DNA of 64,000 bases, taken from positions 9,413-73,412 of the forward strand of contig PS015109.1 in the NCBI GenBank assembly GCA_048213135.1, in the 5' to 3' direction. A program made the position numbers and the translations under genes. Positions within the stretch are counted from its first letter, which is position 1; each line of letters starts with the position of its first letter. The DNA comes from Reclinomonas americana ATCC 50394 (taxonomy: Eukaryota). Positions 99 through 58,200 of this stretch are shown in pieces. The notes under the pieces are model-generated. The model saw only the letters and a list, made by a program, of their open reading frames with translations, was not told the origin of the DNA and did no database searches.

Positions 99-557
99 CC
101 TTCCGTGGAAGCCACGGCGAGGGCCCTCGTGCGCGCTTCACCTGTTGCGTGACGCACACTCACTTATGTCTCCCTCGCATCACACCGTCGCTCACATCGC
201 GATGCACACGCGAACGAAACAGCTGTGCCCGGTCGTGCCTACAATCGCTTCCTCGACAACCGCGCCACCCTCCGCGACGCGTACCTGCGTCACCTGCCCG
301 GCAAGCTGCGTCGCGAGGCCGTCTACCACGAGCTGTTTGAGCGCGACGCACGCCTGCGTGCTCGTCGCGATGGAGTGTCCGACGAGGACTTTGACACAGC
401 AGTGCCCGGATTCAGTGGCCACCGTCTTCGTCGCCACCGCCGCTTGTCGCACGCCGAGGCTCCGTCTGCGCGACAACTCGGCTGCGGCAATGGTGGGTGC
501 GACACACGTCGTCGGTGCGCCAATGAGCGTCGCCGTTGGCTCGCCAATGCGTGGTAG
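99..557 (+). CDS. Secreted Arg/His-rich protein, family B, copy 1 (5' exons lie outside the window); exons 99-143 and 223-557
   Basis: Near-identical to 3939-4710. The last exon encodes the same protein and ends CANERRRWLANAW*. Intron 144-222 is GTTGCG..AG. Confidence 0.8.
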
Positions 558-657
558 ATGATGAGTGTTGGTGGTAGATCGATATCAAAGTTTTGTTTGC
601 TTGTTGCCGTCCCTTTTCTTCAATGAAATTCAATCATGTTTTGCATCCACCCCTCGT

Positions 658-791
658 GGTGCCCGAGGCACACCGCGGCCCGCCCCACCCAAGCGGCCTC
701 ACGCCAGCCACACTCTGTTGCGCGGATCTCTTGCGGCGCGAAAGAGCGCTTTGACGAACAGCGTCGCCGGTGGTTGGCCGGTGCTTGGTGA
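658..791 (+). pseudogene. 3' remnant of the family-C gene; the 5' part is deleted
   Basis: Matches 5953-6097 (..EQRRRWLAGAW*) with small indels. It is joined at GGTG to sequence matching 4800-4813. Confidence 0.8.
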
Positions 792-1188
792 AGATCCTCG
801 AGGAAGTGTGTGAATTATGTTTTTCATTGTAGTTGCTGTTGCTGTTGTTGTTATCGCTGCTACACAAGTCTTGCTCGTGCCTGCTGCTCTCGGTAACTCG
901 GCTGTTTCTCCATGACCACATCACCGTCATGATCGTGCGCGATCGACAGCACTGCATTTTGCAACTGTTGGCACTTGCCCACGAACAGCAAGGCAGCAGT
1001 GTTGTCGTTGGACATGTCCATCATGTCAGACAAGCGCAAGCACAGTGGCATCGCTTCTTACTCAGTCCTGAACACGAGAAAACCGATGCAATGCAATGTA
1101 TGTGCTGCGTTCAGTTTCGCACGTTGCTCATCGAATTCACACTGGCTTTGTTTGTTTCTTTTGGTTCGACAGTGGAGAAGAGGAAACC

Positions 1189-1939
1189 ATGCGCACCACC
1201 ACCTGTGTCCTCGTGTTGACTCTCAGCCTGCTGGCGGTGGCCTCACAAGCCGCAAGTTGCGCGCGACTCATTCTTTGCAGCGAAACTGTGTGGTCCCTCT
1301 CTCTCACACTCGCGTACCATCCCCCACACACAGTCCTCCGCGGTCCTCGTGCCTATGACAACCGTAACCTCTCGGTCGCCCAGATCGAGAATCGACCAGG
1401 CGACAGTTGCGTGACCACACCAGCACAACACAACGCTGATGAGTGATATCAAAACTCATCGGTTTCGTACATCTGAACACATACACAGTTCGTCACGTCG
1501 AGCTCAACCAGGACCGCCACCCTGTCTGTTGCGTCCATACACCCATCGCAGGCACTGAATCCCTCTGCAGTCCACTCACCCTCCCACTCTCGCAGCGACA
1601 CCGACTCACCGCTTCCTCGATCGCGATGTGACTCTGGAGGAGATTTACCACCGCTCGCGCCGTGCCATTCGTGCGCTGCACGTGCAGGGTGAGCGTCTGC
1701 GCCACCAAGTGGCCGGCATCTCTCCGGCTGGCGACACGGACGCCATTCGTGCGGCGTGCCTGAGTGCGGAGCGTGCACTGGACGAGACGTGGGCGGCGGC
1801 ACGCGACGGCATTGTGCACAAGAGCATCGACGCTGGCCTGCCCAACGACGGCACCCTCACACACACGCTCGATGACAACCACCAGCGTGAGATCAGCCGC
1901 CTGCATGTGGCGTGTCAGCGTGCGCAGCACAGCTCGTAA
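1189..1939 (+). CDS. Secreted protein family A, member A1 (173 aa); exons 1189-1255, 1334-1405, 1489-1527, 1596-1939
   Basis: Signal peptide MRTTTCVLVLTLSLLAVASQA. The spliced frame is open. Motifs RGPRxYDNRNL, HRFLDRDVT and VACQR are shared with the paralogues. Confidence 0.85.
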
Positions 1940-2620
1940 TTTCCGAGAGACCAAGACCAAGAAGTGTGATGCAGTTTTGTCAATCGTCGTCGCGCCACAC
2001 ATGTGCCGCACAGCAGTAATGTACGTACTGGTAATAGCATACATCGCGGTGGAGGAGAGGAGGAGCGGAGGAGTAAGTGAGAGAGTGAGGGAAGCGCAGC
2101 AGAGAGAGTGAGAATGACAAGGGAGTGAGAGAGAGAGAGAGAGTGAGAGCGACACACACACACACACAGAGCGCGAGAGATGGAGGGAGAGAGATAGATG
2201 AGAGTGGTGCACTGGCAGCAGCCACGCGTGCACACTCACACTCACCACCAATTGCAAGCGATCGCGAGTGAGTGGACTGGTGACGAACTGTCAGCATCAG
2301 ACTCGAAATGTCACACTCCATCAGTCAGGAATGGACGCCTGAGAGGCTGCTCATGTAGCATTACCATTGCCATCTCTCTCTCTCCTCTCGTACATCTTCC
2401 TCGCGCCACAAAACCACGTGTTCGATATTTGAAATACTGGTGCATGTGCTGGAGAAGTTATCGTCGTCACTGCCGACTGCATGCCTTGATGACGGAGTCG
2501 ATCTAGTGCAGGCAACAACAGCAGTCTTAGCATTCAACACAGCCAACCATTGCGCAGCAGGTGAAAAGTGGACAGGTAAAACATGCGAATTCTGTTGTAC
2601 ACTTTCTAAAGCGCAGCTGT

Positions 2621-3309
2621 TCACGAGCTCTTCACGGCACGCTGGCAGGTGACGTGCAGGCGGCTGACCTCGCGCTGGAAGTCATTGTCCAGCGTGTGAG
2701 TCAGGCTGCCGTCGTTGGGCAGACCGGCGTCCTGGATCTTGCTGATAATGTTGCGGCGCTCGGCGGACCAGATGCCAGAGAGAGCGCGCTCGGCCTGCAG
2801 GCACACAGTGCGCACGGCATCGGTGTCACCGCGGATGCTCTTGTCGTTGGCCTTGGCGCGTCCCTTGTCGCCGGCAATGTGCAGGGCGCGAATGGCACGG
2901 CGAGTGCGGTGGTAGATCTCCTCAAGAGTCACGTCACGGTCGAGGTAGCGGTGGACAGGGTCAGCTGCAGCAGGCAAGAAGAGAGAGAGGTGTGAGTGGA
3001 GGTGGCGGGCAAGGGCAAAGGAGAGAGAAAGGCGAGGCAACGCAACAGACGGGGTGCTGGTTGAGGTTCAGTTCGTTGTGGCGAATGTCTCCGGGGCGGT
3101 TCTCAATGTCCTGCACCGACAGGTTGCGGTTGTCGTACGGACGAGGTCCACGAGTGACTGCGAGGGGTCACAAAGTGTGAGTGAGAGAGTGTGAGTGAGT
3201 GGAGGGAGACGGGGAGACGAGGGAGAACGGAACTGCCATCACCACGGGCACTGACGGTCACGGCCACGAGGCACAAGACCAGAGCAAAGACGAGAGTCGA
3301 GCGGATCAT
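2621..3309 (-). CDS. Secreted protein family A, member A2 (176 aa); exons 3309-3234, 3157-3047, 2964-2621
   Basis: Signal peptide MIRSTLVFALVLCLVAVTVSA, followed by RGPRPYDNRNL..HRYLDRDVTLEEIYHR..LHVTCQRA. Confidence 0.85.
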
Positions 3310-3938
3310 GGTAGTGTCTGGGTTGGGGCTGCTGGTCTGCGCTCGCAACACAAGGCTAAAGGCAAGTGATCACTTCCGGCTATTGGCAGGAATTGATCCG
3401 GACTATTCGCGCTGCGATGGTTGGACACAGCCGCCGTGTCCGAAATGTAAGCCGCTCGCTCTCTCACCTTGCATGCAAGCAGGCTAGCAGGCAAGAAGAC
3501 CACTGCTTCCATTCAGTGCTATCGCCATTGTCGATACAACCACTGTGCTGGTGCAGAGAGAGCAGAATCGTGTGCAAGCAGTTCCGGTTTTTCAGTGCAA
3601 GTGTGTTCGGTCCCATTATCGATCGAAGTCGAGACATGCGACCAGCCTCGCGTGCATCGTAGTGCGTGGTGGAACACTCGGGGGGATAGATGCACTTGTA
3701 CACGCAATCTTAATGATCTTTGTGCTTGACGTGACGGCCAAGCTGCGGAATGCGGACAACCATGTAGCCGGCAGAATCTGGGTCCAGATTTAACAGGAGA
3801 TGTGTCCATGCACCACCGCGTAGCTGCACGAAGGCAACACCACTTGTGTGCGAGAGGAAGAAATCCGATTCATTGTCACCTCTGAATCAAATTTGGAAAT
3901 ACTGGTTTTCTTTCAGTCGAAGAGTGAGCAAAGGAGGC

Positions 3939-4135: not shown

Positions 4136-4166
<31 letters not shown>

Positions 4167-4710
4167 CAGAGAAAGACAGAGAGAGAGAGAGGAATGTATG
4201 AGTGAGAGAGAGTGCTCACTCATCGACAAGCTACTCACGCTCTCTCTCACCCTCACACAGCATTGCGTGGAAGCCACGGCGAGGGCCCTCGTGCGCGCTT
4301 CACCTGTTGCGTGACGCACACACACTTATGTCTCCCTCGCATCACACCGTCGCTCACATTGCGATGCATGCGCAGCTGTGCCCGGTCGTGCCTACAATCG
4401 CTTCCTCGACAATCGCGCCACCCTCCGCGATGCATACCTGCGTCACCTGCCTGGCAAGCTGCGTCGCGAGGCCGTCTACCACGAGCTGTTTGAGCGCGAC
4501 GCACGCCTGCGTGCTCGTCGCGATGGAGTGTCCGACGAGGACTTTGACACGGCAGTGCCCGGATTCAGTGGCCACCGTCTTCGTCGCCACCGCCGCTTGT
4601 CGCACGCCGAGGCTCCATCTGCGCGACAGCTCGGCTGCGGCAATGGTGGGTGCGACACACGTCGTCGGTGCGCCAATGAGCGTCGCCGTTGGCTCGCCAA
4701 TGCGTGGTAG
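3939..4710 (+). CDS. Secreted Arg/His-rich protein family B, copy 2 (159 aa); exons 3939-4002, 4074-4109, 4261-4305, 4376-4710
   Basis: Signal peptide MRAVLIIAVTVCLLAVVGSA. Three phase-1 GT-AG introns give an open frame. Confidence 0.85.
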
Positions 4711-5121
4711 ATGATGCGTGGTGGTGGTAGATTGATGTCAAAGTTTTGTTTGCTTGTTGCCGTCCCTTTTCTTCAATGAATTCAATCATGTTTTGCATCA
4801 ACCCCTCGTGGTGACACAACTGTGCGCATGCAAGTCGCATGCCAGCAAGCGATCAAGAACTTGAGGATCGCGAGCAGTTGCGAGAACACTCGTGCGCAAG
4901 GTGAACGAATCCTGGAAGAAAGTTGGGCACTCATGCCAGTCGATTTGTCCGCAGCGCACAGCAGGTGAGTGGTTATGTTCGCAGCGTGCAGCAGGTGAGT
5001 GTTCACAGCCGGCTCATGATATTGTCGTTTTGTTATTCGCGATTACGGTTACTGTAGTGTAATATGAAATACGTTTCGTGAGTTATTTCGGACGTGAGGA
5101 GAGAAGAAAAGGAGTCAAACC

Positions 5122-6097
5122 ATGCGGGTGCTTTCCGTGTCTCGAGTGCTCGTCTCATGTGTGCTGGTGGTGGTGGCGGTGATGGCGACCGTGACATGTG
5201 GTAAACGCAGCGCGTGCTGTTGCCTCTCACGCTGCTGCGCGGCGGTGACTCTGTGTGTGATTCTCACTCTCGTCCGATCTGCGCAGCCGCCCGTCCTCAT
5301 CAGCCACCGCCAGCAAACTTCCCTGCGCGCTTTCCCCAGTGTTGCGTTCCGCGCGCACGCACTCCGCAGCGCAGCGGTGTTTCACGCAGACTCACTCCCA
5401 CCATCGATCAGTTTTGCCACCGTTCGCCGACCATCGTCCCACATTCGGGCGTGGTATCCTGGATGCTCGCGTCCCCCAGTGTTGAGTGCTACTTCTCGTT
5501 CCTACTCCCTCTCTCCTCCTCCACTCTACTGCGCGTTCACAACACCACGCAGTCCTCCCGCCGTACATGCGCCCACAAGACATCAACGATTTTTCCTTCT
5601 TGAGTGACTTCGACGATCTCGACCACGACCGCTCGTACGCTGTGGGTTGCGTTGTGGCTGTGTGCACGTGTGGAGCACAGGATACTGTACGCTGTACCTC
5701 GTGTGCGCGAACTCTCATGCAACCTGCACGCACAGCATTGCCCGGACGCACGTACCCCCACTTGTTCCACACGCTACAGCACGATCTGATTGGCTTCTCG
5801 CCAGCCGCCGCCACCGCACACGTGCACGACAACCACCATCATGGCCACGGAGCTGCAGGTGTGACTCCCTTTGTGCGCGGCACTGGTGAGCGTGACGAGA
5901 TCTTCCGTGCCCGCCACGACATTGCAAATCTGCCTCCGGCAGACAAGAAGCCGGTGCCGAAGGCACACCGCGGACCCGCCCCACCCAAGCGGCCTCACGC
6001 CAAGCATCCTCTGTTGCGCGACGCACCGCGGTTCTCCTGCGGCGCGAACGAGCGCTGTGACGAACAGCGTCGCCGGTGGTTGGCCGGTGCTTGGTGA
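5122..6097 (+). CDS. Secreted Pro/His/Arg-rich protein C, related to family B (218 aa); exons 5122-5200, 5287-5340, 5412-5480, 5553-5645, 5736-6097
   Basis: Hydrophobic N-terminus and four phase-1 introns giving an open frame. It shares ARF, PGRxY and the C-terminal CxxxRRRWLAxAW* with family B. Confidence 0.8.
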
Positions 6098-8206: not shown

Positions 8207-8245
<39 letters not shown>

Positions 8246-15289: not shown

Positions 15290-15343
15290 TGCGCGGGAGT
15301 GAGTAAGGACGAAAGAAGAATGTNNNNNNNNNNNNNNNNNNNN

Positions 15344-16213
15344 GGCATGGGCTCCTACCTGTTGGAGAAGCTGAACGATCGGTACCCCAAGAAGCTCATC
15401 CAGTCGTACTCGGTGTTCCCCAATCAGCTGGAGAGCAGCGATGTGGTCGTGCAGCCGTACAACTCCATTCTCACTCTCAAGCGTCTGGCCGCCAACGCTG
15501 ACTGCGTCGTTGCGTCGCGCGCGAAGCTGATTCCTTGCGCAGCAGCATTTCAACTCTAACACGCAATGTGTGCATAGGTGGTGCTGGACAACACTGCCCT
15601 CACGCGCATTGCCGTCGACCGTCTGCACTTGACAAACCCCACCTTTGGTCAGGTCAACTCGCTGGTCTCCACGGTCATGGCCGCCTCGACCACCACTCTG
15701 CGGTACCCTGGTGCGTGTGGAGGCTGAGAGAAAAAGGAGGGAGAGTGAGAGGAGACAGAAGATTGCTCACTTTCTTTTGTTATGATGCACAGGGTACATG
15801 AACAACGATCTGATTGGCCTGGTGGCCTCGCTGATCCCGACGCCACGGTGCCACTTCCTCATGACTGGCTACACTCCGCTGTCGATCGATCGCGACTCTT
15901 CGCAGCACGTGCGCAAGACGTCGGTGTTGGACGTCATGCGGCGCCTGCTGCAAACCAAGAACATCATGGTCTCGTGTTCCACACGCCGAGGGTAAGTTAT
16001 CTCTTGAAGGCTGCTTGTCCACGACAGTTGCTGACGCCTCCACGCAGCTGCTACATGTCGATTCTGAACATTATCCAAGGCGAAGTGGATCCAACACAAG
16101 TGCACAAGTCGCTGCAGCGCATTCGTGAACGCAAGCTGGCCACTTTCATCCCGTGGGGCCCGGCCTCGATTCAAGTCGCGCTCTCCAAGAAGTCGCCCTA
16201 CATTGAGACAGCA
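15344..16213 (+). CDS. TUBG: Gamma-tubulin, middle exons (inverted relative to the rest of the gene)
   Basis: [49 protein letters not shown]. Confidence 0.95.
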
Positions 16214-16326
16214 GTTGCGTCTCGCGCGCGGTGCCCGCNNNNNNNNNNNNNNNNNNNNNNNNNNNNNNNNNNNNNNNNNNNNNNNNNNNNNNNNNNNNNN
16301 NNNNNNNNNNNNNNNNNNNNNNNNNN

Positions 16327-16730
16327 AGAGCCTGTGCCGCCCGCAATGCCGTGGATCATCAGGAAGCCCTCGAGGGAATCACTGCCGTCGGCCTCGCGAT
16401 CAATCATCTCCATAATGTCCTCGTGCACCTTTTCCGCCTGCTCGAAACCTGCGGGAGGGGTAGGAGGGTGAGGGTGAGGGAGAAAGCGGGGAGGCAGGTG
16501 CGAGGTGAACGCACCAGAGCCCCAGTTGTTGCCGGCACCACCGCCCTCGGGTGAAATGTAGATGTTTTCCGGGTTGAACAGGTTGTGGTAGGTGCTGTTC
16601 TGGATGCCGTTGATGACCTGCGGGAAAGGAGTCGTGAGGCACTTGTCAGTGTGACAAGGAACAGAGAGCACGAAACTCGTGGTTCCAAATCGCACAGCAG
16701 AGCGCGGGGGATGTAGTGTTCGTCGTCGGC
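16327..16730 (-). CDS. TUBG: Gamma-tubulin, N-proximal exons (the first exons are missing, probably in a gap)
   Basis: [33 protein letters not shown]. Confidence 0.95.
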
Positions 16731-19679: not shown

Positions 19680-19730
19680 ACTCACACGTGCGCGCCAAAC
19701 TACAAACTCCGCTTCTCTTCCCCCAACTCA

Positions 19731-22700: not shown

Positions 22701-25700
22701 CTCGCCACTGCGCTCCGTGTACGCCGACTTGTTGGCCTTCAGAATGCTGGAGACAGCTGTGGTGATAACAAACAGAGAGCGTTGGTGAGATGATGCGACT
22801 GTTGATTTCCTCGCTGCCGCGACATATTATTACGCACATAACCGCACAGTGCCCAGCAAATCGTTGCCGTCCTTGTCCTCGTCAAACACCTCCACCTGAA
22901 TCTTGCCCTTGGACTTGAACTCCTCCGGTGACTTGTCGATAAAGAGCACAGGGAAGTACAGCTTGGTGTCGAAGCGCGGATCCAGCTTCTCCGTGATTGT
23001 CTGCGCAGTGGGATGAGCACAACTGTGCGGTGGAGTGTGACTCTTGCGTGGAGGACAGACGCAACTCTTGTGCGATACTGCATGCCGTCGTAGCTGACGA
23101 CGACAAACGCATCCGAGTACAACGAGGCGTCGGCCGCAATCAGATTCTGGCACGACTGAACGTGCACGGCGAGGTACGTGTGCCACGGCTTCAGCGTATC
23201 TGTGAAGCACAGTCAGTATTGCAGAAGTGTAGAACTCACGAGTTGGGAGTGGTGCGGGCGCAACAGAATTCGCCAGCCTGAATGTAGCGCGGACTCGACA
23301 GCAAGTTCACACTGCCCTGCAACACACCACCCGGTGTTCGTTTCCGACCCTCCACGTGCACTGCATGTATGTATGTGTGCATAAGGTGAGTGCGTGGAGT
23401 TTCGTAATGGCAGGGGACAGAGCGCGACGCACCAAGACGACATTGCAACATTTGCGTGTCCACCACACCACGCAGGGGCAGCAAACGCTCGCCAATCTTC
23501 ACATCGCGTGTGCGGTTCCAGTCAAACACCTGTACATCCAGATCCTCGTTCTCCAGCTCGCTCATGGTCCCGTAGTATGTCACCGAGCCCAACGTGTCCC
23601 ACACAGGCTCGCTGCGGTGCCACACAAGGTGAGTCGAACGTGTATGTCGCGCAAAGGCAGTCAACACACGACGCACGTTGTCTGATAAATCACTGGCGAC
23701 TGGAGGCCGCGGCCATAGAATCCACCCAGCTTCTTCCATTTCCTCCAGTCGCTGTCATGCAAGAAGTCAGCTCACATCGACAACAGCTGGTCGACACACA
23801 GATCCATCCACTCACCGCTTGATGACGAGCTTCACATACGGATCCGAGACCAACTCTGCCTGCCCCTCCTTCCGGTCGACACCGACAATCTCGCGACCGG
23901 TCCAATCGTCGAAACTCATCACAAACTGGAACATCTCCTGGAACATGATCTCAAAGTCGAGCTTCATCACGATCGGTGAGGAGGGGTGCGAGTCAAGGTG
24001 TGAGACGGAAGGGGAAGAGGAAGATGATGTCGATGATGGGAAATGAAGGATATCATTGCCGTCGCTGGCACCCGGTGGTGCGCGCAGCTCCACCGACTGC
24101 TGCACCTCGCCCGACGCAATGTCCACCAGCTTGGTGCGCGAGAAGCCCTTCAGTTNNNNNNNNNNNNNNNNNNNNAGGAGGAGGAGGAGGAAAATAAGGA
24201 CAGGAAGAGTGAGGAGCGAGACGAGTGCCTCTGTCTCTGTCCGAGTCTCTCCCTTTCACTCACTGGCTCGGTTTGTCAGTCTCGTACAAGACATGAACGG
24301 AGAGCAAAAACAGAGATGGGGAAGAAGTCAAGGAAGAGGGAGCAGCAGAGAGGAGGACGAGATGAATGCTGCTGTCTCTGTCCGAGTCTCTCCCTTCCAC
24401 CCCCTCACTGGCTCGTATTCTCAGTCTCGCTTAAGGCAGGCACGGCGAGCAAAACAGCGAGAGGAAAGAAGTAAGGAGAAGAGAGCCACAGAGAAGACAA
24501 CGAGATGCATACTTCTGTTTCTCCGCCTGTCTATGTGCTTGTCGTTGCACTTCTCTTCGCTCTCACTGTCTGTCAGTCTGCTTGTACATCTGCATGTGTC
24601 ACATGAGACAAGCACGGAGAGCAAGCAGGGAGTGAGGAGGAGGGAGGAAAAGAATGAGCACGGAGAAGACAGCGAGATACTGCTTCTCTCGGCTTGTCTG
24701 NNNNNNNNNNNNNNNNNNNNNNNNNNNNNNNNNNNNNNNNNNNNNNNNNNNNNNNNNNNTGCCTCTCTCCCTCCCTCCCTCTCTCTCCTTCCCCACTGCC
24801 TCCTCCACACAACTTGTGCCGATTGTCCTCGATACGGAAATCACCACCCATCGTGAACCGAATGTACGGACTCATGCTCTCGCGCAGACTGCGGAACTGA
24901 ATGTTGCGAATGATGCACTTGAAGAGGCGCTGCTTGGTGTCCTCGGCAGTCAACAGATCCTTCATTTGCTCCTTGGTCGGGCGAGACTGCGCGAGGTGGC
25001 CAGTGATGAGACATGACGCACGCACCCTGTAAGACTCAAACTCGCACGTTCTCTCTCACTCCACCAGTGGAGCACGCACACAATGCCTCGTACACACAGC
25101 GCATGACGCGAAATGCACACAAAGAACGCGCGAACAAAGGCGGAACACAGTTGCGGAGAAATGGCCACACACACTTTGACGACACTCACTCGCTCGCCCC
25201 CCGCAGCTCACAGCTCTCACTTGCGCGCACAGCAACGCACACACACGTACACCCACAATCACTCTTGCACACACAAGCGAGTGAGAGCGTGAGTGAGAGC
25301 GTGAGAGAGCGAGTGTGTCGAGAAAGTGTGTACGAGTTTGTCTGCATGAAAGTGCTCTCTCTCTCACACACACTCTCGCTCTCTCGCACACACACTTCTA
25401 CACATGCACACACGCACACACAAAAGCACACACTTTCACACACTTTCACACACTTCTCCCCCCTCGTCACTCACCAGCGGATCCAAATGCAACTCATCGA
25501 CCTCATCGACATCGCCTGCGCTCTCCCCGAGCACCACCGCACCATTGCCAGTGGCGTGAAAGTTCGAGACCTCACCATCGGCCTCCTCTCCATCGCCACT
25601 CAAGTCAATCACTGTGCGATATCCCGAGTCAGCCCGCGCAGGTGCTGCGCCTGAGCCTGAGCCTGCGGGTGTGTTGTTGCTCCTGGCTGCGTTGCTGCTT

Positions 25701-30812: not shown

Positions 30813-33380
30813 GCACCGTGGCTCCACAACAAGCACGACCACAGCTGCTAGACGGACTGCAAGTGGAACGCGAACGAGGCATCACAGTGAAGGCGCAGAC
30901 GGTGTCGATGTTGTATCGGCCCAAGGATAGCGAGTCGAAGCCGTTCATGTTGAATCTCATTGATACGCCGGTGCGCCTTACTCCTTCCCTCCTCCATCCG
31001 TGCGACCTTGGTTTCTCATCGGCTGTGAGGGTAGGGTCACGTGGATTTCACCTACGAAGTCAGTCGTTCGTTGAGCGCTTGTCAGGGCGCGCTGTTGTTG
31101 GTCGATGCCGGTCAGGTTCGCATGCTGTCTCTGTCTCTCTCTCACTCCCCATTCCTCCCTTCCCCTCCCTCCCTCCCTCCCCTTCCCTTCCCTGCTCCCC
31201 CTTCCCTTCTCCTTCCTCTCCTGCCCCCTCCCCTTCCCCTCCCTCCCTCTCCCTCCCTCCCCCTTCCCTCCTTCTCCTCCCTCTCCTTCCCCGCCTTCCA
31301 CCTCCTGACATGGCCGTTGCGCCACGGGTGCGCAGGGCGTGCAGGCGCAAACCTTCGCCAACATGCACCTGGCCATGGCGCAAAACTTGGAGCTCATCCC
31401 GCTGGTCACCAAGGTCGACATCATGGGTGCCGACGTGCCGCGTGCGGTGGCCGAGATGCAGAATGCCCTCGGGTTCTCGCCTGCCGATATCATACATGTG
31501 CGTTCGTTGCTGTGTTGCGTAGCCATGCATTCGCAATCACAGTGCTCACTGTCCCCACGGCGTCGCCAGACGTCGGCCAAGGTCGGCATCGGCATGGAGG
31601 ACGTGTTGGAGGCCATTATCAAGCGCATTCCTCCGTGCGTTTCGGCATGCATTTTTTCTCTGTCGATCTCTCTCTCTCAAGGCGTGCACACAGACCATCG
31701 GGTGTCGTCGAGGGACCGACACGCGCACTGGTGGTCGACTCGTGGTACAACGAGTACCGCGGTGTCATCTGTCTCATGTCGGTGGTGGATGGCATGCTGA
31801 GAAAAGGTACGCTGCTGCAGATTTGTTTCCATTTCCATACATGCGCTCACCATCGACAAAAAGGCGACAAGGTGGCCTCGCTTGCCAGCGATCGGTCGTA
31901 TGAGATCCTGGAACTCGGGCTGATGAATCCCATGCAACTCCTCCCCACAAAATCACTGTTGCGCGACGCTCTTCCCGCCCTCCTCCTTCCCCCCTTCTCG
32001 CCTCACCTCTTTCTCTCGCAGTCACACTGGCCAGGTCGGTTATGTGATCTGCGGCATGAAGAGTACGGTGGAGGCGCGTGTGGGCGACACGTTTGCCCTG
32101 CATCGCGATCACGCGCAGAGCAAGGTGCAGGCGCTGCCGGGCTTCCAGCCCGTGAAACCCATGGTGTACGCCGGTCTGTATCCCACCGACAGTGGCGAAT
32201 TCGAAAAGCTGGCCGACGCCGTGGCCAAGCTCACCGTCAACGACGCCAGTGTGCTGGTACAAAAGGAGTCGAGGTGCGTGCTGTCGGTGGGCGTGTCCTC
32301 CTCGCGCCTGGCTAATTATCGGCGGCAGCGACGCGCTCGGCCTCGGATTCCGCTGTGGCTTCCTCGGCCTCCTGCACATGGATGTGTTCCGGCAGAGACT
32401 CGAGCAGGAGTACGACATTTCTCTGATTGTCACTCCACCCACCGTGCCGTACCGAGGTCTGCGCACATCACCATCCCTTTTGCCTGCTGCTTGCCGCTCA
32501 TGTGTGTGCGCACACGCAGCCATCATGACGGACGGAACCACGCAATCGATCCACAATCCTGCTCTGTTTCCCAACGTGGCGCAGGTGGCATCGTTTGAGG
32601 AGCCGACGGTGCATGCTACCATTGTGACTCCCGATCATTTTGTGGGCGCTATTTTCGAATTGTGTCAGGACAAGCGCGGTGAGCAACTCGACTTCTCCAT
32701 GATTGGCGACAAGCGCGTACTGCTGCGCTACAAGCTGCCGCTGAGCGAAGTGATCACCGACTTTTTCGATCGACTCAAGAGCCTCACGCAAGGCTACGCC
32801 AGTTTTGATTACGAGGAGGCCGATTACCAGACGACCGATATTGTGAAGGTGGGAGCGCACTTTTCGTGCACAACCTTGCGACTTGCTTGTATTCCCACAC
32901 ACGCACGCACTTCCCAGCTGAGCATTCTACTCAACGGTGCTCCGGTCGATGCACTGTCGTGCATTCTGCACAAGAGTCGTGCACAGCAGACGGGACGCGA
33001 CATGGCCGTGCGACTGAAGGACGTTATTCCAAGGTGCACTTGAATCCCCCGCTCCATGCGCACTCTGTGCTTGTGTTCACTCGCTCGCAGACAACTGTTT
33101 GAGATTCCGATCCAGGCCGCCATCGGCTCCAAGGTGGTGGCGCGCGAGACGGTAAAGGCCGTGCGCAAGAATGTGACTGCCAAATGGTTTGCCTGCAGCT
33201 GTCAAACCTCTGCCGTATTCCTCTGACCACGCGCACACACACAGCTACGGCGGTGATTTCACGAGAAAACGCAAGCTGCTGGAGAAGCAAAAGGAGGGCA
33301 AAAAGCGCATGAAGCGCGTCGGCAATGTGGAACTCTCGCAAGAGGCCTTCTTTGCGGTTCTCGAACAGAAAAAGACGTGA
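30813..33380 (+). CDS. GUF1: Mitochondrial translation factor GUF1/LepA (EF4); 12 visible exons, 5' exons in a gap
   Basis: [61 protein letters not shown]. Confidence 0.97.
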
Positions 33381-43060: not shown

Positions 43061-44922
43061 ATGGCAAAGTGAGTCGCTTCTCTTGTGTTGTGCATGTGTG
43101 TGCCTGTGCTTCTCTTGTGTGTGCTTCGTGCGTGTGAGATTCTTGGCGTGAGGACTGGGGGGGTGTTGTTCCGTGTGACCATTTCGCACTTGTCGCGCAA
43201 CTTGTCTCTGTCTTGTGCGTGTGCATGCGTGCATGTGCGTGTGCTTGTCGTCGTGCACTGGTGGTTTTGTGTCTGTGTGTGTGCGCGTCGTGTGTGTGTG
43301 TGTGTGTTGGAAGGGGCTGGCGTGCCGGAAGTGCGTGTTGTCATGTGCATGTGCACTTGCTCGCCCAGCGCAGTGCTCACGCAGATGATTTCCGTGCGTG
43401 TTTCCTTTGCATGCTTTCGGGCGTGCATGCGTGTGTGTATGTGTGTGTGTGTGTGCGGACGACACGCGTGTCCACGTCATTATGCCGTATTCTCCACTCT
43501 CTTGTCCGACTGTTGTGTTTTCCGGCACACTCTCCGCCCTCCTCTCTCTGCCTCAGCAGTCTCCTCTTCTCGCTATCTGCATGTGGATGTGTGAGCCTGG
43601 GTGTTGCACACCGCTTGCGTCAGCCCAGATGTATGACGTCAGACTTGCACTTGCAGGCGATTCCCTTCGATGCGCTGGGCACAGCGCAAGGATGTTGTGC
43701 TGGTGACTGTGGATCTGAGCGACACAACAAACGTGTCGGTGACCTTTGAGGAGAAGCACTTGTTGCGTAGCTCGTCCCTGTGTGCGCTGGTTGTGCAAGT
43801 CCTCGCGCTCATCTCCGCGCTCTTGCACTCAGCCACTTGACATGCAAGCGAGAGGACGTCGAGTACGACGCCCATGTGGACTTGTGGGCGGCGGTGGATC
43901 CGGCAGTGCGTCACGCGTTGCTGCTGCAGCTCTTTTTGCTGTTCTCGTTTACTGACACTTGTTGTGCAGGCATGCAAGTTTGATCGCAAGGCACGAAACA
44001 TTGGCATTCTGCTGACCAAGGCCGAGGCTGGCCCCTTCTGGGACAAGCTGCAAGCCGGCGGTCGCAACGCCAACATCTCAGTGGACTTTGAGCACTGGGT
44101 CGGTGCGTACGATCAACCACGAGTGTTCACTCACATGTGCACGTGATCTCTTCTTACGCGTATGAATTGCCACAGACGAGGACGAGGACGAGTTCCACAA
44201 GTCGGGTGCCGGCATGGGAGACTTTGACTTTGACGAGGGTGGCATGGGCGGCATGGGTGGCATGGGTGGTATGCCCGGCATGGGAGGCATGGGAGGCATG
44301 GGCGGCATGGGTGGCATGGGCGGCTTCCCCGGCATGGGCGGCATGGGCGGCATGGGCGGTGAGTGCACAGATGCAGTCTAGTTTTTCGCTTCATGCTCTC
44401 GCCTTCTTCTTCTTCTTCCTCCGTCTGGGTGCCCGGGTGCGCGTCAATCTCGCGGCATTTGTTGATGTCTGTCCGCTGTTGTGTTTTTTTGCTGTCGAAA
44501 GGCATGGGCGGCATGGGTGGAATGGGCGGCATGGGCGGCATGGACATGCAGGCCATGCTGGCGGCCATGCAAGCTCAAGGCGGCGCAGGAGGTTTTTTTA
44601 AAAAAACACGCACACGCACATCACTGCTCGTTTTGTGTTCCGCGATTTGCATTCTCACTCTGCGTGGTGTCTCTCGCGTATGACAGGATTTGGTGGCGAC
44701 GACGACGAAGTTGCGTCTCACTCTGTCTCTGCGTCGTTTGACTTTCGCGCGTCGCACTTGGTGTGCTGACCGTGATTACTGCAGGGCGACTCGGATGACG
44801 AAGAGGACGCGCTGGCCGATCTGGAGCCAAAGGCACACGAGTCCAAGGAAGTTGCGCTGTTGTGAGGTGCCCCCCCTTGTCTCCACTTTCCCTTGTTCCT
44901 CATTCCGTCTGCGCGACAGTGA
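43061..44922 (+). CDS. PTGES3: HSP90 co-chaperone p23/Sba1 (CS domain + GGM repeats); the stop is at 44865 if the last intron is not spliced
   Basis: PSMRWAQRKD, FWDKL, VDFEHWVDEDE, (GGM)n tail, DSDDEED. Confidence 0.9.
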
Positions 44923-48615: not shown

Positions 48616-51600
48616 ATGGCGTCATCATCGCTCGCTTCACCGCCCTCTGTGGTACAGTTCCACGAGGAAGGTAACACGTTGTTGTTGTCTCCCCCTACTT
48701 TCTCTGCCTCCTTCCACTGAGCATGTGTGTTCTTGTCGCGCGCGCGCGCAGCGTTTCGCGAGGCCGAAGAGTTTGGTGCGTTGATCCTGCGTTACCGCTC
48801 TTTCTCCTCGCATCGCACTCTGTGCTGAACGCTCCTGTGTGTGTGCGTGTCGCAGAGGACCTGCGCAAAGTGTTTGCTCGGGCCTGCGACACCACCGATG
48901 AGACGGGTGGCTTGACACGCATCAGTCGTCGAGTGTTCAAGCAGTCGATGATTGGCTGGCAGCTGGCGGCCGACACGACCGACGATCACAAGATGTTCGA
49001 GTCGATGTTCATGTCGCTGCTGAAGAATCGACCGAGTTGCGACACCCTTCCCTCGCACATCACCATTTGATTTCTTTGCGCTGACAACTGCGTGCAGGCT
49101 TCAAGTTCAAACACTTTGTGACGGCCATCAAGCAGTTGGTCGCTCGCAAGTACCCCGGTGTCGACATGGATATTGCATTCCGCGAGGTGCTGGTCACCAA
49201 CATTCTCAAGACGCTTGACGTCGACCAAGGTGACACGCCACACTTTTGTCCAATCCCGCCACATGTGCGCTCACCTCCACGGTGATACAGGCATTCCCGG
49301 TCACGACGATCCCGAGGTCCTGGATGTGCTCTCCGAGTACCGCCGCTGTCTTCGACGAGTTACTCCTGCGTGCGCCCCCTTGGCCACATTCGCCCTCTTG
49401 CCTCACGTGCATGCGCAGATCTTTGACGGCTACGCCGTCGACAACGTCGTCATACCGAACGCACAGTACGTGAACGACGGCGAGGACCGCGACTGGACGC
49501 CCGACATGTTCATGAAGTTCTGGAAGGACTTCAACGTCTTTCCTGGCCTGCTCTCCAAGTCCGAGCTGGCCAAGGTTCCTTCCAGCCGCTGTTGGCAGTG
49601 TGGATTCTCACTGACCGCGCTCTCCTTCACACAGGTGTGGAAGCTGGCCAATGTGGGCGACCAGTCCGACGACAACCCGTTCGAGCTCAGCTACGATGAG
49701 TTCACCGAGGCGTTTGCACGTGTGGCACTCTCCTCGTACACCACAGGTCCGCTCTCCAAGAAACACGTTGCGTTCTTAGGCGATTCACACACATCCCCTC
49801 CCTCGTGAGTCAAACTGACACTCTCTCGCGCTCGCACACAGGCCGAGAAACTGCCATACCAAAAAGTTCTGCTGCTCATCCAGTTCATCGACAAGACGTA
49901 CAAGCGTCTCACGGGCAAGGTATGCATGAGCGCCATGATTCGCCTTGCCTGTTCTCACGTGCGACTTGCATGCACAGGCAATGGACGAGGAGCGATTGCC
50001 AGTGGAGTCGAGCCTGTCTCGCGTACCCACAGTCACCAAGTTGGTCAGCGTGACAATCCTTCTTTTCACGTGCACGATGTGTTGTTGAAGTTGCTTTTCC
50101 TCACTTGGCTCTCCCTCCTTCAGTCTCCGGCCGCTGGTCCGTTCAGTGGCGGCTACCACGTGGTGGTAAGCGGACGCGGCTTTGACGTTCGGCGCATGGC
50201 ACAGCCCACCTGTCGTATCTTGTATCGGGAGACAGCCGGTGTGGTCACCGTTCCCGTGCGCGTCAACACCGACAGTGAAGCGCTCCTCGTGGTACGTGCT
50301 GATTGTGTCTGCGTTGTGCACGTCACTCGCTCTCCACTCACATCGCTGACTGTCTCACAGATACCACCCTGTGCTCAAGAGGGCCGAGTGAAGAACATGC
50401 TGACTCCGGCTACTGCGCTCTCCAGCCTCGCCACCCTTCGCATCCTCCGCGAAGAAGAGGCCAAACTCAGCTTCAGCAACGATGGCGCCACATTCGCCCT
50501 CGAGGAACTCATCTTTGCGTACCAAGGTGCGCCGAGCAAGCCCGCATAAATCATTTGCTTCTTGCTGTACAGATTCTCAACACACACAACGCAGAGGACA
50601 TTGGACCGCTGCACTTGACCACAGCCACGCTCAGTTGCGCCACCACTGCTGCTTTCTCACTCCTCCACTGCGCTCACCTGTTCTTGTGCATGCTCAGACG
50701 ACCTGCGAAAAACGTTTGTAATGCTCACCACACGCACCGATGCGTACAACTTTGACTTTCTCTTCGAGGATGGTTGGACGGCGTTCTGCGACGAACTGCT
50801 GCAGGTGCCACCCACCGACTGGACCCGCCGCTGCTTCAGCGAGTGTGGCAGCATTCACGAAAAGAGTTGCGCTTCCGAGTGTGTCCTGGACCGCGTGGCA
50901 CGTACACACGCGACCGCACCGCACGCACTGCTCATGGCCTCGCGCAGGTCCCAAGCGAGAAACTGCGCTATCGTTCACAGAATTCGTAGGGGCCACGGTG
51001 GCGCTGGTGTATCGCATTCAATTGCCGGCGCTGTCCGAACCGGACGTGACAGATGCCAATACCAGACTGCAGCAACTCGTGGACGAGGCACTGGGCTCGG
51101 CCATTGGTCGACTGGCAGTTGCGCAAGCACGCACACACACTCACACACACACACTACACGCAACTTTTGTGTGATCTAATGCCATGCGTGCGTCCAGGCC
51201 ACAAGCAAGGCGCGCGCTCGTCAAATCAAGCGGCAGCTCTTCGATCCATCCCAGTTGGGCCTGCTGCAGGAGCGCTCACTGGACGTGTACGTTGGTCCAT
51301 TAGTTGTGGGACGTATCACCGAAAAAGCCGGGGCTATGTCCGTCAGCTTCCGTCCCACTCCAGCCATCTCGTCGCACCCGTTTTTGCGCAAACCCCAGTT
51401 TCGTGCCATATTGTTATTTGTTTGCTTCTCGCCTGCCACCGACTTTGCCCCCCCACACGGCAGGCGATGGACAGTGGTCGTGTATGCGCCAGAGCACTTT
51501 CGCACGTTTGTGGAGGTGATTGAGAATGGCGAGACGTGGACCGATGCGATTCATCACATGTTGAGCCTCGGTTTCGACTTTGCGGCCCCGGAGGACGTGG

Positions 51601-52210: not shown

Positions 52211-55200
52211 TCACAGCGTGCCGAGGAGCTTGGTGCCCTCGGGTGACGGACTGCGATCGCGCTCCGCCTCCCCAGTCTCGACAAAGGCGGCCTGCGTGCC
52301 GCGGGTCGGTGTGCGCGCAGCCCAGTTGCTGGGGCTGGCCTCGCCAGGCAGACGCGGCGGCGCCGCAGACGGCAGCGTTGGTGGCACATTGACCGAGAAC
52401 GAGGTGGGCGGCGATACAGCTGAGGGGCGGCGAGCGGCACGACGAGCTGCCAGTGTCGGCGGTGCGGCACCGACAGTGGGCGGCTCATCGCTGGCGACAG
52501 GCGCCATTGGTGCCGAGGGGCTCTCCAGATGATCGTCGTCACGTGGACTGCTCGAGTGCGTGCTCTCGCTGTCGTCGTTGGCCGCCGACGACCCAGACGG
52601 CTNNNNNNNNNNNNNNNNNNNNGACGCGCAACCAGCGGTTGCGACATGGCCTCAATGGCGGCGTCGCGGCGGTGATTGAGGAAGCGAGCGACCAGCACCA
52701 CGGCCAGCACGGCGACCAGCAGCACGCCGGCACCCGAGGTGGCGGCAATGATGATCACCGAGCGCTTGTTTGACGTGGTCGGGTACGTGGCTCCGCTGCC
52801 GGAGCTCGAGTTGCCATTGCCACCCGTGTCACTACCGCCAGGAGTCGGCGTCGGTGTGGGCGTCGGCGCCGGTGTCGATGGGTCGGCAGACGGAATTGGC
52901 GTGATAGTGTTGCTGGCACTGTCGGCGGTGGACGCGTCGCTAGTCGTATCCACGGTAGTGATGGACGCCTCGACGACGCTGAGGCCACCGAGGACCGGTG
53001 CAGGAGCCGCAAGCACGGCAGCGAGCTTGCTCGTAACCGCGTCGAGGTTCACCACAGGGCCGTCGCCCGAGCTACCAGTGTCGGCGGCAGGATCGGTGGC
53101 ACCAGTGAACTTGCTCGGCTGGCCCAGGTTGACAATGACAAAGTCGACGCTGAAGGCCGAGGCACGTGTCGTAATCGCGCGGGCACTGGTGGCGCTGGTG
53201 TTGCGAGTGACGCTGACAATCTTGATTGTACGCGGGTCAATGGCCAGCAGCGTGGCGACGTTACTGATGAATTGATCGGCTGTTCATGCAGTGCGCAGTG
53301 AGTCTCACAGGTGGCAACAGAGAGGACCGCAAGGGAAGAAGGCGGACGCACCGTAGAAATCGGAAGTGGTGAGCTGCAGCTTGACCGACACAAACACCGT
53401 GGACAGGATGCGCACGTAGATGTTTGGCGAGTCGCCACGAATGTTGACGGTAATTTGGCGCGTCGCCGGCGGTACTTCGTAGAAGTTGCTTCCACTCGGG
53501 TCCTGCCATCGGAGAGAGAGACAACAAGAGTGAGCGTGGATGACAGCAATTGATGTTATGACGACCACGAATTGACAAACCGTAAGTGCCGGCGCCTTGT
53601 TGGCAGTGTTGACCACGTTGCCGCCGGCCCACACTTGCAGCACAAACGGTCCAATATACGGCATAGTGTACATCAAGGCGTCGGTCTTGCGCACCGGGTT
53701 GAGCAGGTACACACGCAGATTGTTCGGGTTGGTGTTGGTGAACTCGAAGCGGTACGCCTTATTGACCTCCACAGCAAAGACTGCGAATACAACCGAGGGC
53801 GTGAGCACATCGGTGTCGCACACATGTCAACAACAAAACAGACGCACAGAAAGTGGACAGGCGGAGCAAGCTGGTGTGCACGCCGTTCCAGCGGTGATCC
53901 ATGGGACCTATTGTCGGACACACACACGAGCAGATGAGCATCAAAAAAAGAGAAGGCGCGTTTCAATCTCTTGCCACTCACCATTGACGTAGTAAGTGGT
54001 CTTGTACGGGCTGGTGATCTTCACCGGACCCAGACGACGCTCGTACGTGTCAGGATCCTTCGACTCGAGCACGGCCAGTGCCACCGGGAAGCGGTTGCAC
54101 TTGTAGGCGTTCCACTCGCGCACCAACGTGCAACGAGCGGGGTCCACCAGGCCGGGGTGGTTGGCAATCACCACCGCATCCACTGGCACGGCCGGCGCCA
54201 GCGACGTCGTCAGCATGGAGCCGTCCATGTCCTTGAAGAACACATGCTTGGGACGTAAGGGGGGAGCAAAAAAAGTATGATAAGTACCAAGGGTTGAAAA
54301 GAGAGGAAGCGAGACAACACAAGGACATATCATCGCAGTCCATGTCGACGCAGTCGGTCGGGTTCACCCAGGCCGGATCCGGCGGGTAAATGTGGAACTT
54401 GGAGCGCTCGTCCGTGTTGATCCACTTCATCGAGTACATGTGATGGCTGTGCTGCGCGTCGGGAGACTCTTGGTTGTTCTCAATTCCGGATGAGGTGATG
54501 TTGCAAGTGAGGCCGTTGTACGTGTAGTACCAGTCGGCGAGGGTGACGCCGCGGTATTCAACGAGGCCAGGCACAATCGGATCGCCCTTTGGCTTCCACC
54601 CTGCATTGATTATAAAAAAAAGCCACACGTGCGTCAGCACTACCAATGTTACCGACCGTAAAACATATTTCGACCCAGCGACGCAACATGGCAGATCCTT
54701 CTTGGCCGGCGGCATGTCCTTGCAATCCTCGGCAAACACGCTACCGTGGATACCGAGATTGTACGCACAGCTGTTGTCGCGCTGGCCGACGATGAGAATG
54801 TTCGAGAACATGCTCTTCTGATCCGAGCGTGCAGCCACTGAACCGCAATTGCCAGCGCCAATGCCGCGCGCGTTGTACGCCAGCACGGCCGTGTTGACCT
54901 CCAGATTGATCCAGTTGTACGTGTACACACCAAACTCATCATTGTCGAATGCAAGCGCGTTGTTGAGGCGACCGCAACCTACAGCGGAAAAGAAACGTGA
55001 GACATTCACACACACCGCGACAGAGTTATCAGTTTCCACCACAAAAGACGCAACGTTGGCCGTCGATTCCCCACAGGAAGATACCAAACTTGGCGCCGTG
55101 TGCCACCGGGTTGGTGACAAGAGTTGGCGTGCCAGAGCCGTCGCAGTTGGTGAGGACGGTGAGGATGCCGAAGTCGTCTGAGCCAGCCACACGGACATTG

Positions 55201-58200
55201 TCGAGAATGTTGCCGGCGACCTTGAAGTTTTCGACACCGGCGAGGATGTCGACCTGCTTCGCGTGCAGCGCAGGGCGCTTGGTCACGTCGAAAATGACGG
55301 TGCGGCTGATCAAGTTGCCGCCACCCATCAGGCGAATCGACGAGCGATACGAGCGGTACAGGACCGAGTTGGTGAGGTTGAGAGCGTTGGGAGTGTCCAC
55401 CCAAACGTTGACGCCCATGCCGTAGTCAAAGACGGTGCTGTTCACAGTGCTCATCTTCTCCTGGCCGGTGAAGTGCAAGCTGCGCAAGAAGAGAGAGATA
55501 CGGCGGTGAGCACGACCACCACCATCACCACGCATTTCACCGCCGATGCATCACTCACCAAGCACGCTCGCCGTCCATCTCACCGCAACCAGTGATGCGC
55601 ACATTGTTCAAGTCCACCTGACCCGACACCTTCTTGTTGAGGAGCCAGAAGGACGAGGTGCGGATGTGCACGCCTGGGACGACACGAAGAAAAGTCAGCG
55701 AAAAAAAAAAAAAGGAACGACAACGAGTGTGGCCCAAAGAAGTAACCTTGCCACGGATCGGCATTGCCGCGAATGCTGATGTTGCGGTCCAGCAGGGCCA
55801 CTTCGGTGCGCAGATCAACAGTCACACCGTCGACCACACGCTTGCTGCCGTAGTGCGTGTACGTCAGCGGCGCGTTGAGGGTGATCTTGCCGGCACCGTT
55901 GTTTGCGGTCACAGTGCGGGTCTCGGTCTGCGTGCGGTCGCGACCGGACGTGCCAATGACAATGCGCGAACCGACAGCCCAGTCAACATTGTCGGCCAAC
56001 GTGAGCAGGTTGGAGTTGGCGGGCGCATCAACGTTCAGCAGCGTCCACGGATGAGACGGCTGCTTGCCGTACAGGCGGAGAAGACCGGTCACCAAAATGT
56101 ACTTTGGTCCCAGGTCCAGCTGCTCCACAATCGGCAGCGGCGTGAACGTCTGGTTGTAGCCGTAGACGACGATTTCTGAGTTGAAGGTGTACGGGGCATC
56201 CTTGGAGCCGGCCGTCAACATGCCGCCACGAATGTAGATGCGCTGGCAGTTCAGTTGCACGTTCTTGTTGTCGAGGCGCAGCTCGCCGTCAATGACGAGG
56301 GCGCCGATCAGAGGAGTCACCGGCACATCCATCAACATGATCCAGTCACCAATAATGGTCACTATACACACACAGACGAAGCAAGTTTAGCGACGAAGAG
56401 GCATTTGCAACAAACCACCCACCCACACTCGAAGTTGCTCACCATCTTCACCGGCAACTGGCACAGCTCCGCTCGGCCACACCGTGGGATCCGACCAGCG
56501 CACAATGGTGGACGGCGTGCCAGGCGTTGTCGGCGCCTTGGCGCAGCCACTCTCAGGGCACTGCGAGGCACTCCAGGACATGCGGTTGAAAGCCTTGCCC
56601 CAGCCCGACGCGCGGGTGGCCAGATACGTCTTGTTCACCGTGTCGTTGCGGTAGTGGTAGAAGGTACCGAACGGAAGCGTGGGGTCACGAATGTTGTCAG
56701 GACCCGAGTCACCGTACACACGCGCACCGTTCACGTTCACCACAAAGTGATCGCGGTAGTCAAAGTACGGCCAGCGGAACGTCACCGTCTCGCGTGCCTG
56801 CGTACCGTCAATGCCCAGCAGCGACCAGTCGTTGTTGACGCTCGACAAGTCGGCGTTGCCGAGAACCTTGAGTGAGTACAAATTGTCGTTCATGGCCACA
56901 ATAATGGCAAAGCCGAACTGTGGGTTGCCGCCAAACTTCGGGAACGTGGTCTCGAGACCCGTCTCGTTGCCGTAGCGCATACTAGTGTTGTTGAGCAGCT
57001 TCACATTCAGCGGCTTGAACTGCAACGAGTAGCCTGGCTGAATGCCGTTGACTTCCACGCGTCGGAACACTGGTGGATGAAATTCAAGGGGCAAGGTGAG
57101 TGGTAAGCGAGGGCACAATAAGAGGGCAAGCGACGCAACAGAGCGAGCGGTCGCAAATGAGACCATCGTACATGTCGATGATAGAGGTGGAGGAGATGCA
57201 GCCAGGCACACGCAGATGATCCCACATGTGGAAGACCACAGACGGCTGGTAGTAGCCGGGAACCAGAGTGCCGTCGAGATCCTTCGCAATGTCCTTCTTC
57301 GTCCACCAGAACTGGATGCGCCTGGTGGTGTCGATGTAGGTGGTGTTGCGGAAGTAATGAGTGTGCGCGCCGGCCGTCTCCACCTTCTGCTGGTAGCACT
57401 CGGAGCATTGCGAAATGCACCCACGGTGGTGGAAACCAATGCAGGTCAGACCGTCAACGATGAAGTTCTCAGAATCAGGCGTGCGAATGCCGTTGGAGTC
57501 GGGACGGCGCGGATGGCCGCCGACAAAGTTGGGCGTCTCGTCCACAATGACCGCATTGACCAGAGCGGGGTTGCCGTAGGGCGCCTCATCGGTGGTCACG
57601 GCCTCCCAGCTGATCTTGAAGGCGTCGGCCAACTTGAAGTCGACGTACTTGACATCGCCCATGCGACCGGCCCAGAAGTTGTCTTGTCCGTTCTTGTAGC
57701 CCAACAAGCCCTACACAAACAAAGTGAGCACGCACGACACAGATGAATAAGCATCCTTTCCCCTCCGCGCCACCAACTGCACCTTGTAGACGGCCTGCAC
57801 GGTGGGGTTCGAGGAGAAGGAGTCGCCCTCCTGGCACGGCTTTAAGCGGGGGCGATGGCCGCGGTCGTCAATAAACACGCCAAACTGGCCGTTGGAGTGC
57901 ACGACGTTGTCCTCGTGCACACCAAGACGCTCGGCTTGCGGGCAAACTGTAGTGGTGGCCGATGGGCCGCCGGGATTGACCGGCAAGCGGTACCAGAAAC
58001 CGAATCGCTGCGAACCGGCGGCGTGGTTATTGCGGTGCTTGTTGTTCGGGTTGGTGACCCAGAAAATGGCCGGCTGGGTGTCGGTGTTTAGCGCCGAGGT
58101 GAGGTTGTACACGTTGATGCCGAGGTTGTGGTAGAAGTCGTTGTTCGTCTCAATGCCGTCCTCGATAAAGAAGGCGTGTCCGCGAATCGAGTACGCCACA

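Follow-up and report, generated by a model that had tools for sequence, protein, structure and literature searches.

Pairing of U1 in a shifted register at 5′ splice sites has so far been known from few human sites, which were proven one by one, and the shifted-register sites of Roca and Krainer's 2009 study reportedly number in tens. The subject of the present analysis is a class of predicted donors reading GTTGCG or GTTGAG in a 64-kb stretch of the Reclinomonas americana genome (contig PS015109.1), called the window hereafter, in which this rare human mode of recognition looks routine. Passages of Tan et al (2016; PMC4856993), citing Roca and Krainer (2009), describe U1 pairing shifted by +1 at atypical human 5′ splice sites. 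As at those human sites, the consensus that follows GU in the window comes one base late (G at +6, U at +7) with cleavage staying at GU, and G+1 of the intron replaces G-1 of the exon opposite C9 of U1. The two systems differ in the frequency and in the letters of the sites. The validated non-canonical registers of all kinds amount together to 1.5% of 201,541 human 5′ splice sites in the passages of the same source, whereas the shifted class makes up ~19-28% of the introns in the window. The human type is A-rich, whereas the word in the window is GUUGCGU and has been assigned from sequence instead of by suppressor-U1 proof. Another register described in these passages, the bulge +2/+3 (Roca et al, 2012; Tan et al, 2016), has the same letters, that is, a GUU start and a consensus one base late, but would call for G at -1, a base that hardly ever occurs there in the window. 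No description of a GTTGCG/GUUGCG donor class was found among the papers listed by full-text literature searches, supplements lying outside their scope.

Size and junctions of the GTTG(C/A)G donor class

The window has a G+C content of ~57% of called bases, 16 runs of N and abundant (GA)n and (CA)n repeats, and its genes are tightly packed with many short introns each. Introns were predicted with a parser written for this study, which used codon log-odds and allowed every GT as donor and every AG as acceptor. Its donor table was flat at the start, the base at -1 was never scored and the branch motif was not used. In this flat-donor parse, GTTGCG was the top donor hexamer with 13 of the 176 predicted introns, GTGCGT having 7 and GTGAGT 6. 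Among the 42 introns that were typical, that is, 45-160 nt long with a YAG acceptor, nine (21%) had a GTTG(C/A)G donor, hereafter the shifted class, and six had an ordinary GT(G/A)(C/A)G donor; the 8209 GT sites of the window include 139 of the former motif and 806 of the latter. Iteration refitted the donor and acceptor tables, the intron composition model and the codon table, and the resulting parse contained 143 introns with a median length of 78 nt (GTTGCG 34, GTGCGT 22, GTGAGT 8 and GTTGAG 3). The 99 typical introns of the iterated parse comprised 28 of the shifted class, 29 of the ordinary class and 42 others. GTTGCG and GTGCGT were also the top two hexamers in a crude coding-context test of low sensitivity.

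The junctions were also placed by homology, using profiles for EF4/LepA (built from 42 homologues), gamma-tubulin (37) and a CC2D2A-like protein (11). Together with a dinucleotide rule these profiles fixed 26 introns, nine in GUF1 (GT/GC-AG), six in gamma-tubulin and 11 in the CC2D2A-like gene, and five of the 26 (19%) were of the shifted type. In the following, the last exon base is given in lower case and a slash marks the cut. A preliminary description of the window had anchored a GTTGCG junction on GUF1, and the junction at 31958 was indeed the best GT/GC-AG junction in the EF4 profile: intron 5, t/GTTGCGCG, scored 51.4 bits, the runner-up reaching 46.4 (t/GTTGCGC...CAG, 64 nt, 31958..32021, + strand). 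The gamma-tubulin anchor between ADCV and VVLDN was likewise supported by the profile. Six 69-nt deletions tie as best at this place, and the sole GT-AG pair among them is c/GTTGCGT...TAG (15509..15577, + strand, 69 nt). The rebuilt gamma-tubulin of 221 aa aligned without gaps to the transcriptome-derived gamma-tubulin P0053, the nearest found, with 90.5% identity. When 80 metagenome gamma-tubulin loci were compared, the motif was matched in 70 of them, 67 being uninterrupted and 3 having an intron two residues later; no GTTGCG donor occurred at the equivalent place in these 80 loci, which reach an exon identity of 89% at best and include no close relative. The N-terminal part of gamma-tubulin carries the variant a/GTTTCGT (16618..16676, - strand, 59 nt), the top junction at 58.5 bits and the sole GT-AG pair in the top-scoring set, and an ordinary-class intron g/GTGCGT fixed by the same profile (15711..15792, + strand, 82 nt) is available for comparison. 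Two shifted-class introns were placed in the CC2D2A-like gene. The first, a/GTTGCGT in the C2 domain (23001..23065, - strand, 65 nt), scored 72.9 bits against 68.9 for the second best, and the Pfam C2 profile splits at this intron, its positions 2-40 and 43-85 lying on the flanking exons. The second, t/GTTGCGC (23200..23264, - strand, 65 nt), was absent from the preliminary description and was the top junction also when the dinucleotide rule was lifted.

A base-exact junction was provided by a family of paralogues in the window (family A). The paralogue A1 contains the intron a/GTTGCGT...CAG of 83 nt (1406..1488, + strand), which was recovered by the parse, and the paralogue at 3350-2860 (- strand) lacks exactly those 83 nt and reads GAC ATT, just as the preliminary description had it. 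A slide of this gap by one base in either direction produces a mismatch. Precise support is at hand for four of the sites listed in that description, namely 31958, 15509, 23065 and 1406. Its claim of a major class of 5′ splice site is borne out within the window by the homology-fixed, the donor-agnostic and the iterated sets. The features of U2-type GT-AG introns were found as well. Removal of GT...AG introns restores the conserved frame in the 26 introns and agrees with the exact absence in the paralogue, and near the 3′ end a branch-point-like motif is present, as is a pyrimidine in front of AG. The extended donor of U12-type introns is (G/A)TATCCTT, whereas the donors studied here read GTTG(C/A)G.

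The possibility that the class is an artefact of the gene models, the true donors being nearby ordinary GT dinucleotides or the cut falling at G/TT with a shifted acceptor, draws on two properties of the predicted sites. T stands at +7 in 19 of the 28 shifted donors and creates a second GT five bases on, and the downstream exon starts with G in 10 of the 28, where a one-base slide leaves the mRNA unchanged. However, 9 of the 28 are without T at +7, and where the second GT does exist, its distance of 5 nt breaks the reading frame. Furthermore, 18 of the 28 downstream exons start with a base other than G, so that the frame is kept by GT...AG only, the gap in the paralogue is base-exact, and the profiles, when held to GT/GC-AG, favour the GTTGCG junction each of the five times. 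These findings largely refute the artefact, which we regard as very improbable.

All 37 positions at which the preliminary description had placed GTTGCG or GTTGAG carry the motif on the strand given for them (GTTGCG 33, GTTGAG 4). Both strands of the window together hold 100 copies of GTTGCG and 39 of GTTGAG, the mean hexamer count being 29.6; a 4th-order Markov model expects 78.5 and 35.8 copies, values that are high because the pentamers within the motif are themselves enriched. The sequence after the 37 sites is G-poor and contains a CTCAC/CTGAC/ACTCAT motif and CAG or TAG ~60-90 nt downstream. The parse recovered 29 of the 37 sites, and a CTSAY...YAG signal lies 45-160 nt downstream of 29 of the 37; at 17 of the listed sites the frame-restoring acceptor of the parse is exactly the YAG of this signal. 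The sites 4110, 4306, 5341, 5646, 16214, 45253, 35958 and 31958 are absent from the parse; of these, 4306 duplicates 144, and 31958 is supported by homology although the parse missed it. Gaps of N interrupt the introns at 12378, 16214 and 34275. Eight GTTG(C/A)G donors beyond the listed ones were predicted, at 6566, 6716, 6835, 10558 and 36577 on the + strand and at 41852, 23264 and 21671 on the - strand; 23264 is the one with homology support among them. The shifted-class introns have a mean length of 76 nt and end in CAG (25/28) or TAG (3/28).

The last exon base and the geometry of the donor word

The preliminary description had noticed that a single one of its 37 sites, 5646, has G at -1, and had proposed that the donors of this class are used where the exon does not end in G. 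The count was reproduced, and a strong dependence on -1 was observed in the validated, ab initio and all-copy sets. In the validated set, G at -1 was found in 0/5 shifted donors vs 17/21 others (Fisher p = 0.002). In the ab initio set it was found in 0/28 shifted donors vs 19/29 GT(G/A)(C/A)G donors (p = 4e-8), which agrees with the statement that ordinary donors mostly follow G. Among all 139 copies of the motif, G precedes 1 of 45 donors vs 18 of 94 non-donors (p = 0.007). Since G stands before 18 of the 94 non-donors, GGTTGCG is not a rare word in the window but is merely unused as donor. A coding-independent check relied on the CTSAY...YAG signal 45-135 nt downstream, which was found after 51 of the 115 copies preceded by a base other than G (21 of 35 with A) vs 4 of 18 preceded by G. 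The background of this signal was 1826 of 7938 GT sites (23%) and 27 of 136 on the reverse complement of the motif. As a whole, the observation that GTTG(C/A)G sites act as predicted donors with a dependence on -1 is confirmed on the level of the DNA sequence. Four ordinary donors that were fixed by homology and lack G at -1 (31498 and 31635, + strand; 23676 and 22837, - strand) all read a perfect GTGCGT. That the intronic part is perfect where -1 is not G suggests that the exon and intron halves of the ordinary site compensate each other.

The relation between -1, +5 and +6 was followed in the 43 predicted donors starting with GTT. G was present at +6 only in 33 of them, of which 32 have a base other than G at -1, and the lone exception proved to be a parser error, since homology places this donor at t/GTGCGT (22837). 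All four GTT donors with G at +5 only have G at -1. The validated GTT donors agree with this pattern, g/GTTCGC and g/GTTTGC standing against t/, c/ or a/GTTGCG and a/GTTTCG; the g/GTTCGC donor belongs to a GUF1 intron of the ordinary register that was fixed by the profile (31116..31335, + strand). The distance from the upstream G to the downstream G-T is thus constant. Hence the idea of the preliminary description that one word covers both classes held: it can be written as G-(G/T)-T-N-N-G-T, has a fixed spacing and is cut before the first GT.

In the shifted class the flanking bases are displaced by one position. Its +7 column (T19 C8 A1 G0) has its counterpart in the +6 column of ordinary donors (T25 C3 A1 G0), and its -1 column resembles their -2. 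Flank and pairing scores were computed on 25 shifted donors, three near-identical copies having been dropped. A shift by one base was favoured by +41.7 bits over six flank positions, of which -1 gives 36.4 and +7 gives 6.8, while -3, +8 and +9 are neutral or slightly contrary to the shift. With the human U1 5′ end as it appears in the passages of Tan et al (2016; PMC4856993), which may not be that of the host, a shifted donor makes 6.4 pairs on average in the +1 register vs 4.2 in the canonical one, and 21 of the 25 pair better in the +1 register; the ordinary donors form 7.2 pairs in the canonical register vs 4.6 in the shifted one. The class therefore combines what marks a +1-shifted register, namely more U1 pairs, flanks moved by one base and cleavage at the GU one base upstream.

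The letters of the class could also be read with a bulged U, in which U1 pairs canonically (G+1:C8, U+2:A7), one U at +2/+3 is looped out, and pairing resumes with G+4...G+6 and U+7. GTTGCGT is GTGCGT plus one T, and for the bulge +2/+3 register the passages of Tan et al (2016; PMC4856993) give 68 predicted human sites, with 54 in the curated column. However, the base at -1 would face C9 in this arrangement and G would be favoured there, which was not seen in any set (0/28, 0/5 and 1/45 vs 19/29 and 17/21 of the ordinary donors and validated others). Position -1 alone backs the shift by 36 bits, and the bulged U appears quite unlikely to us.

The explanation that we hold to be probable is that these are genuine U2-type GT-AG introns, and that one heptamer, G-(G/T)-T-N-N-G-T, is docked by ordinary U1 and cut before its first GT. 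The 5′ end of ordinary U1 would dock on the heptamer so that its C9 and C4 lie opposite the two G's, and afterwards U6, U5 and Prp8 would cut ahead of the first GT in the heptamer. When the second letter is G, the cut would fall after the first G, giving G/GTGCGT in the canonical register. With T as second letter, intron +1 would be the first G itself, giving /GTTGCGT in the +1-shifted U1 register with one U:C mismatch; with U opposite C8, the GU usable by the catalytic core would sit one base upstream. Two elements of this scheme are our inference: the word would be read by U1, and the choice of the cut site would come later.

A dedicated or variant U1 beside the standard one is unlikely in our view, although it would account for some properties of the class. 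Such a U1 might carry A at position 8, which would make a perfect shifted duplex, or have a 5′ end able to pair with GUUGCG in the canonical register, and a dedicated reader would explain why the class is large and its motif uniform (C at +5 in 26/28; T or C at +7 in 27/28). On the other hand, one standard U1 explains both classes via the common G...G spacing, and the canonical-register form would leave the loss of G at -1 unexplained. No snRNA gene supports it in the window either, where a scan with Rfam gave no hits at all at the gathering score and, at E<=1, no U1, U5 or U6 but just some miRNA look-alikes of low complexity and weak matches of the C/D-box type. The preliminary description had taken the class to imply a variant or unusually flexible U1/U6 system. 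The size of the class in the window, its dependence on -1 and the single word of its interpretation stand, while the special machinery is not required by the data.

Several points weigh against docking of both classes by one ordinary U1 and against the size given for the class. T is common at -1 (15/45), which pairing to U10 does not account for, and the exon-side match beyond -1 is weak; the U1 5′ end used for pairing was, as said, the human one. The junctions, and with them the class size, the dependence on -1, +5 and +6 and the displacement of the flanks, were called from DNA alone by parse, homologue profiles and paralogue. When the dinucleotide rule was lifted, GUF1 intron 5 and the 23065 intron were placed only to 2-3 nt. 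The parser missed 31958 and mis-set 15717, 22842 and 15130, and its iteration strengthens hexamers that are already frequent. The counts cover 64 kb only and are inflated by paralogues. The 37 listed sites are likewise not independent, family A contributing 144/4306, 1256/4003, 1406, 1528/3046/9377 and 9527.

Family A and other introns and genes of the window

Family A consists of at least four small genes, located at 1-2000 (+), 2620-3350 (-), 4300-7250 (+) and 8940-9650 (-). Their predicted products have a hydrophobic signal-peptide-like start and share the motifs RGPRxYDNRNL and HR(F/Y/L)LDRDVTLxEI. No Pfam match was obtained for the family, and the protein atlas returned only weak matches (<=0.90) to bacterial "hypothetical" clusters. 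The regions 1186-1903 and 6491-7210 are near-identical, and the donor contexts at 144 and 4306 match. Besides the intron at 1406, A1 contains two shifted-class introns that were recovered by the parse and by paralogue alignment. Intron 1, a/GTTGCGC (1256..1333, + strand, 78 nt), has homologues with GTTCCG at 3233 (-) and GTTGCG at 9527 (-) in other paralogues. Intron 3, t/GTTGCGT (1528..1595, + strand, 68 nt), for which the parse acceptor coincides with the branch and YAG signal, has homologues at 3046 (-), 6835 (+) and 9377 (-, GTTGAG). In these paralogous introns the GTTG(C/A)G or GTTCCG donor has been retained while the intron bodies diverged, which in terms of sequence comparison points to purifying selection on the donor word.

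The same introns bear on whether the class could reflect common descent instead of recognition, that is, a recently spread introner-like family with GTTGCG at its 5′ end. The uniform donor and the similar lengths around the mean given above would fit such a family. However, homologous introns of old paralogues share the donor and not the body, and in an all-against-all comparison of the 99 typical introns only the duplicates of A1 and A2 and short CA-repeat matches were alike, so the similar intron bodies of an introner-like family were not found among them. We consider this origin extremely improbable.

Further shifted-class introns were predicted by the parse in other genes. Three of them lie in a fibrocystin-L-like giant gene on the - strand: t/GTTGCGT at 54601..54687 (87 nt), the parse acceptor of which is the CAG of a CTGAC...CAG signal; c/GTTGCGT at 54979..55054 (76 nt); and t/GTTGCGT at 57052..57139, for which the acceptor is uncertain, an intron of 70 nt (CCAG after CTCAC) and one of 88 nt both being in frame. 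In the exon upstream of 57139 the profile match stops at 57141. A fibrocystin-L profile built from 10 animal proteins fits the giant gene but does not extend across the junctions at 57139, 55054 and 54687. The intron a/GTTGCGA (49036..49097, + strand, 62 nt) was found ab initio only, and the same gene has further sites at 49767, 50634, 50866 and 51118. A p23/CS-like gene contains t/GTTGCGT (43762..43832, + strand, 71 nt) and a second shifted-class intron at 44710-44784, both from the parse. At 5646..5656 (+ strand), where alone among the listed sites G precedes the motif, the parse picks c/GTTGTGG at 5651 instead; this donor, five bases past 5646, is of the shifted type with a base other than G at -1, and the region is weakly coding. 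Donors reading GTTCCGT at 3233 (-) and 12174 (+) and GTTTCGT at 16676 (-) likewise have a base other than G at -1, G at +6 and T at +7. As they obey the same rule, the shifted class would be wider than GTTG(C/A)G and more like GTTNNGT.

The genes that carry these introns showed some features of their own. Gamma-tubulin appears scrambled over 14982-16733, with profile positions 54-148 at 16733-16324 (-), 147-367 at 15341-16213 (+) and 365-448 at 15297-14982 (-). This order indicates that the contig between the N runs 15324-15343 and 16239-16326 is probably inverted in the assembly, in which case the donor at 16214 would join the exon at 15297 across the gap. The giant gene (52633-63928, - strand, ~3,500 codons) has two Spherulin4 domains at its N-terminal end, fused to a body that resembles fibrocystin-L and contains TIG, G8 and CEMIP beta-helix domains; among the relatives recovered, animal PKHD1L1 proteins came best, with ~37% identity over ~23% of a 981-aa query exon. 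The CC2D2A-like gene (19729-24974, - strand) encodes a C2 domain as well as a C-terminal domain that is conserved. Going by the roles of their families, the CC2D2A-like and fibrocystin-like genes jointly suggest an organism that presumably builds cilia or flagella. The predicted N-terminal part of the gene with the introns at 43762 and 44710 reads like a p23/CS-domain co-chaperone, and a long GGM/GGMGGM repeat region occupies its C-terminal half (44178-44590, + strand). Pfam gave no match for the short exons of this p23-like gene or for two of three eIF2B-like exons. At 40474-40547 (- strand), a weak snoRNA-like match of the C/D-box type was noted, to snoMe28S-Cm2645 with 34.5 bits vs a gathering score of 48 (E = 0.003).

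Possible routine use of a shifted register

It is quite possible, if a little short of probable, that this lineage uses the +1-shifted U1 register routinely and genome-wide, in at least a fifth of its introns, with thousands of selected sites at which docking and cleavage are uncoupled by one base. Such use may involve a second U1 altered at position 8, or altered forms of U1C, U6 or Prp8 able to accommodate an extra base between GU and the U6 helix. If so, the organism would offer a natural system for the hand-over from U1 to U6 when their registers differ, as well as for what sets the cut site and how splice-site words evolve. Gene finders trained on donors of the GTRAGT/GTGCGT type would mis-annotate at least a fifth of the introns of this genome, a risk that is illustrated by the several introns mis-set in our own parse.

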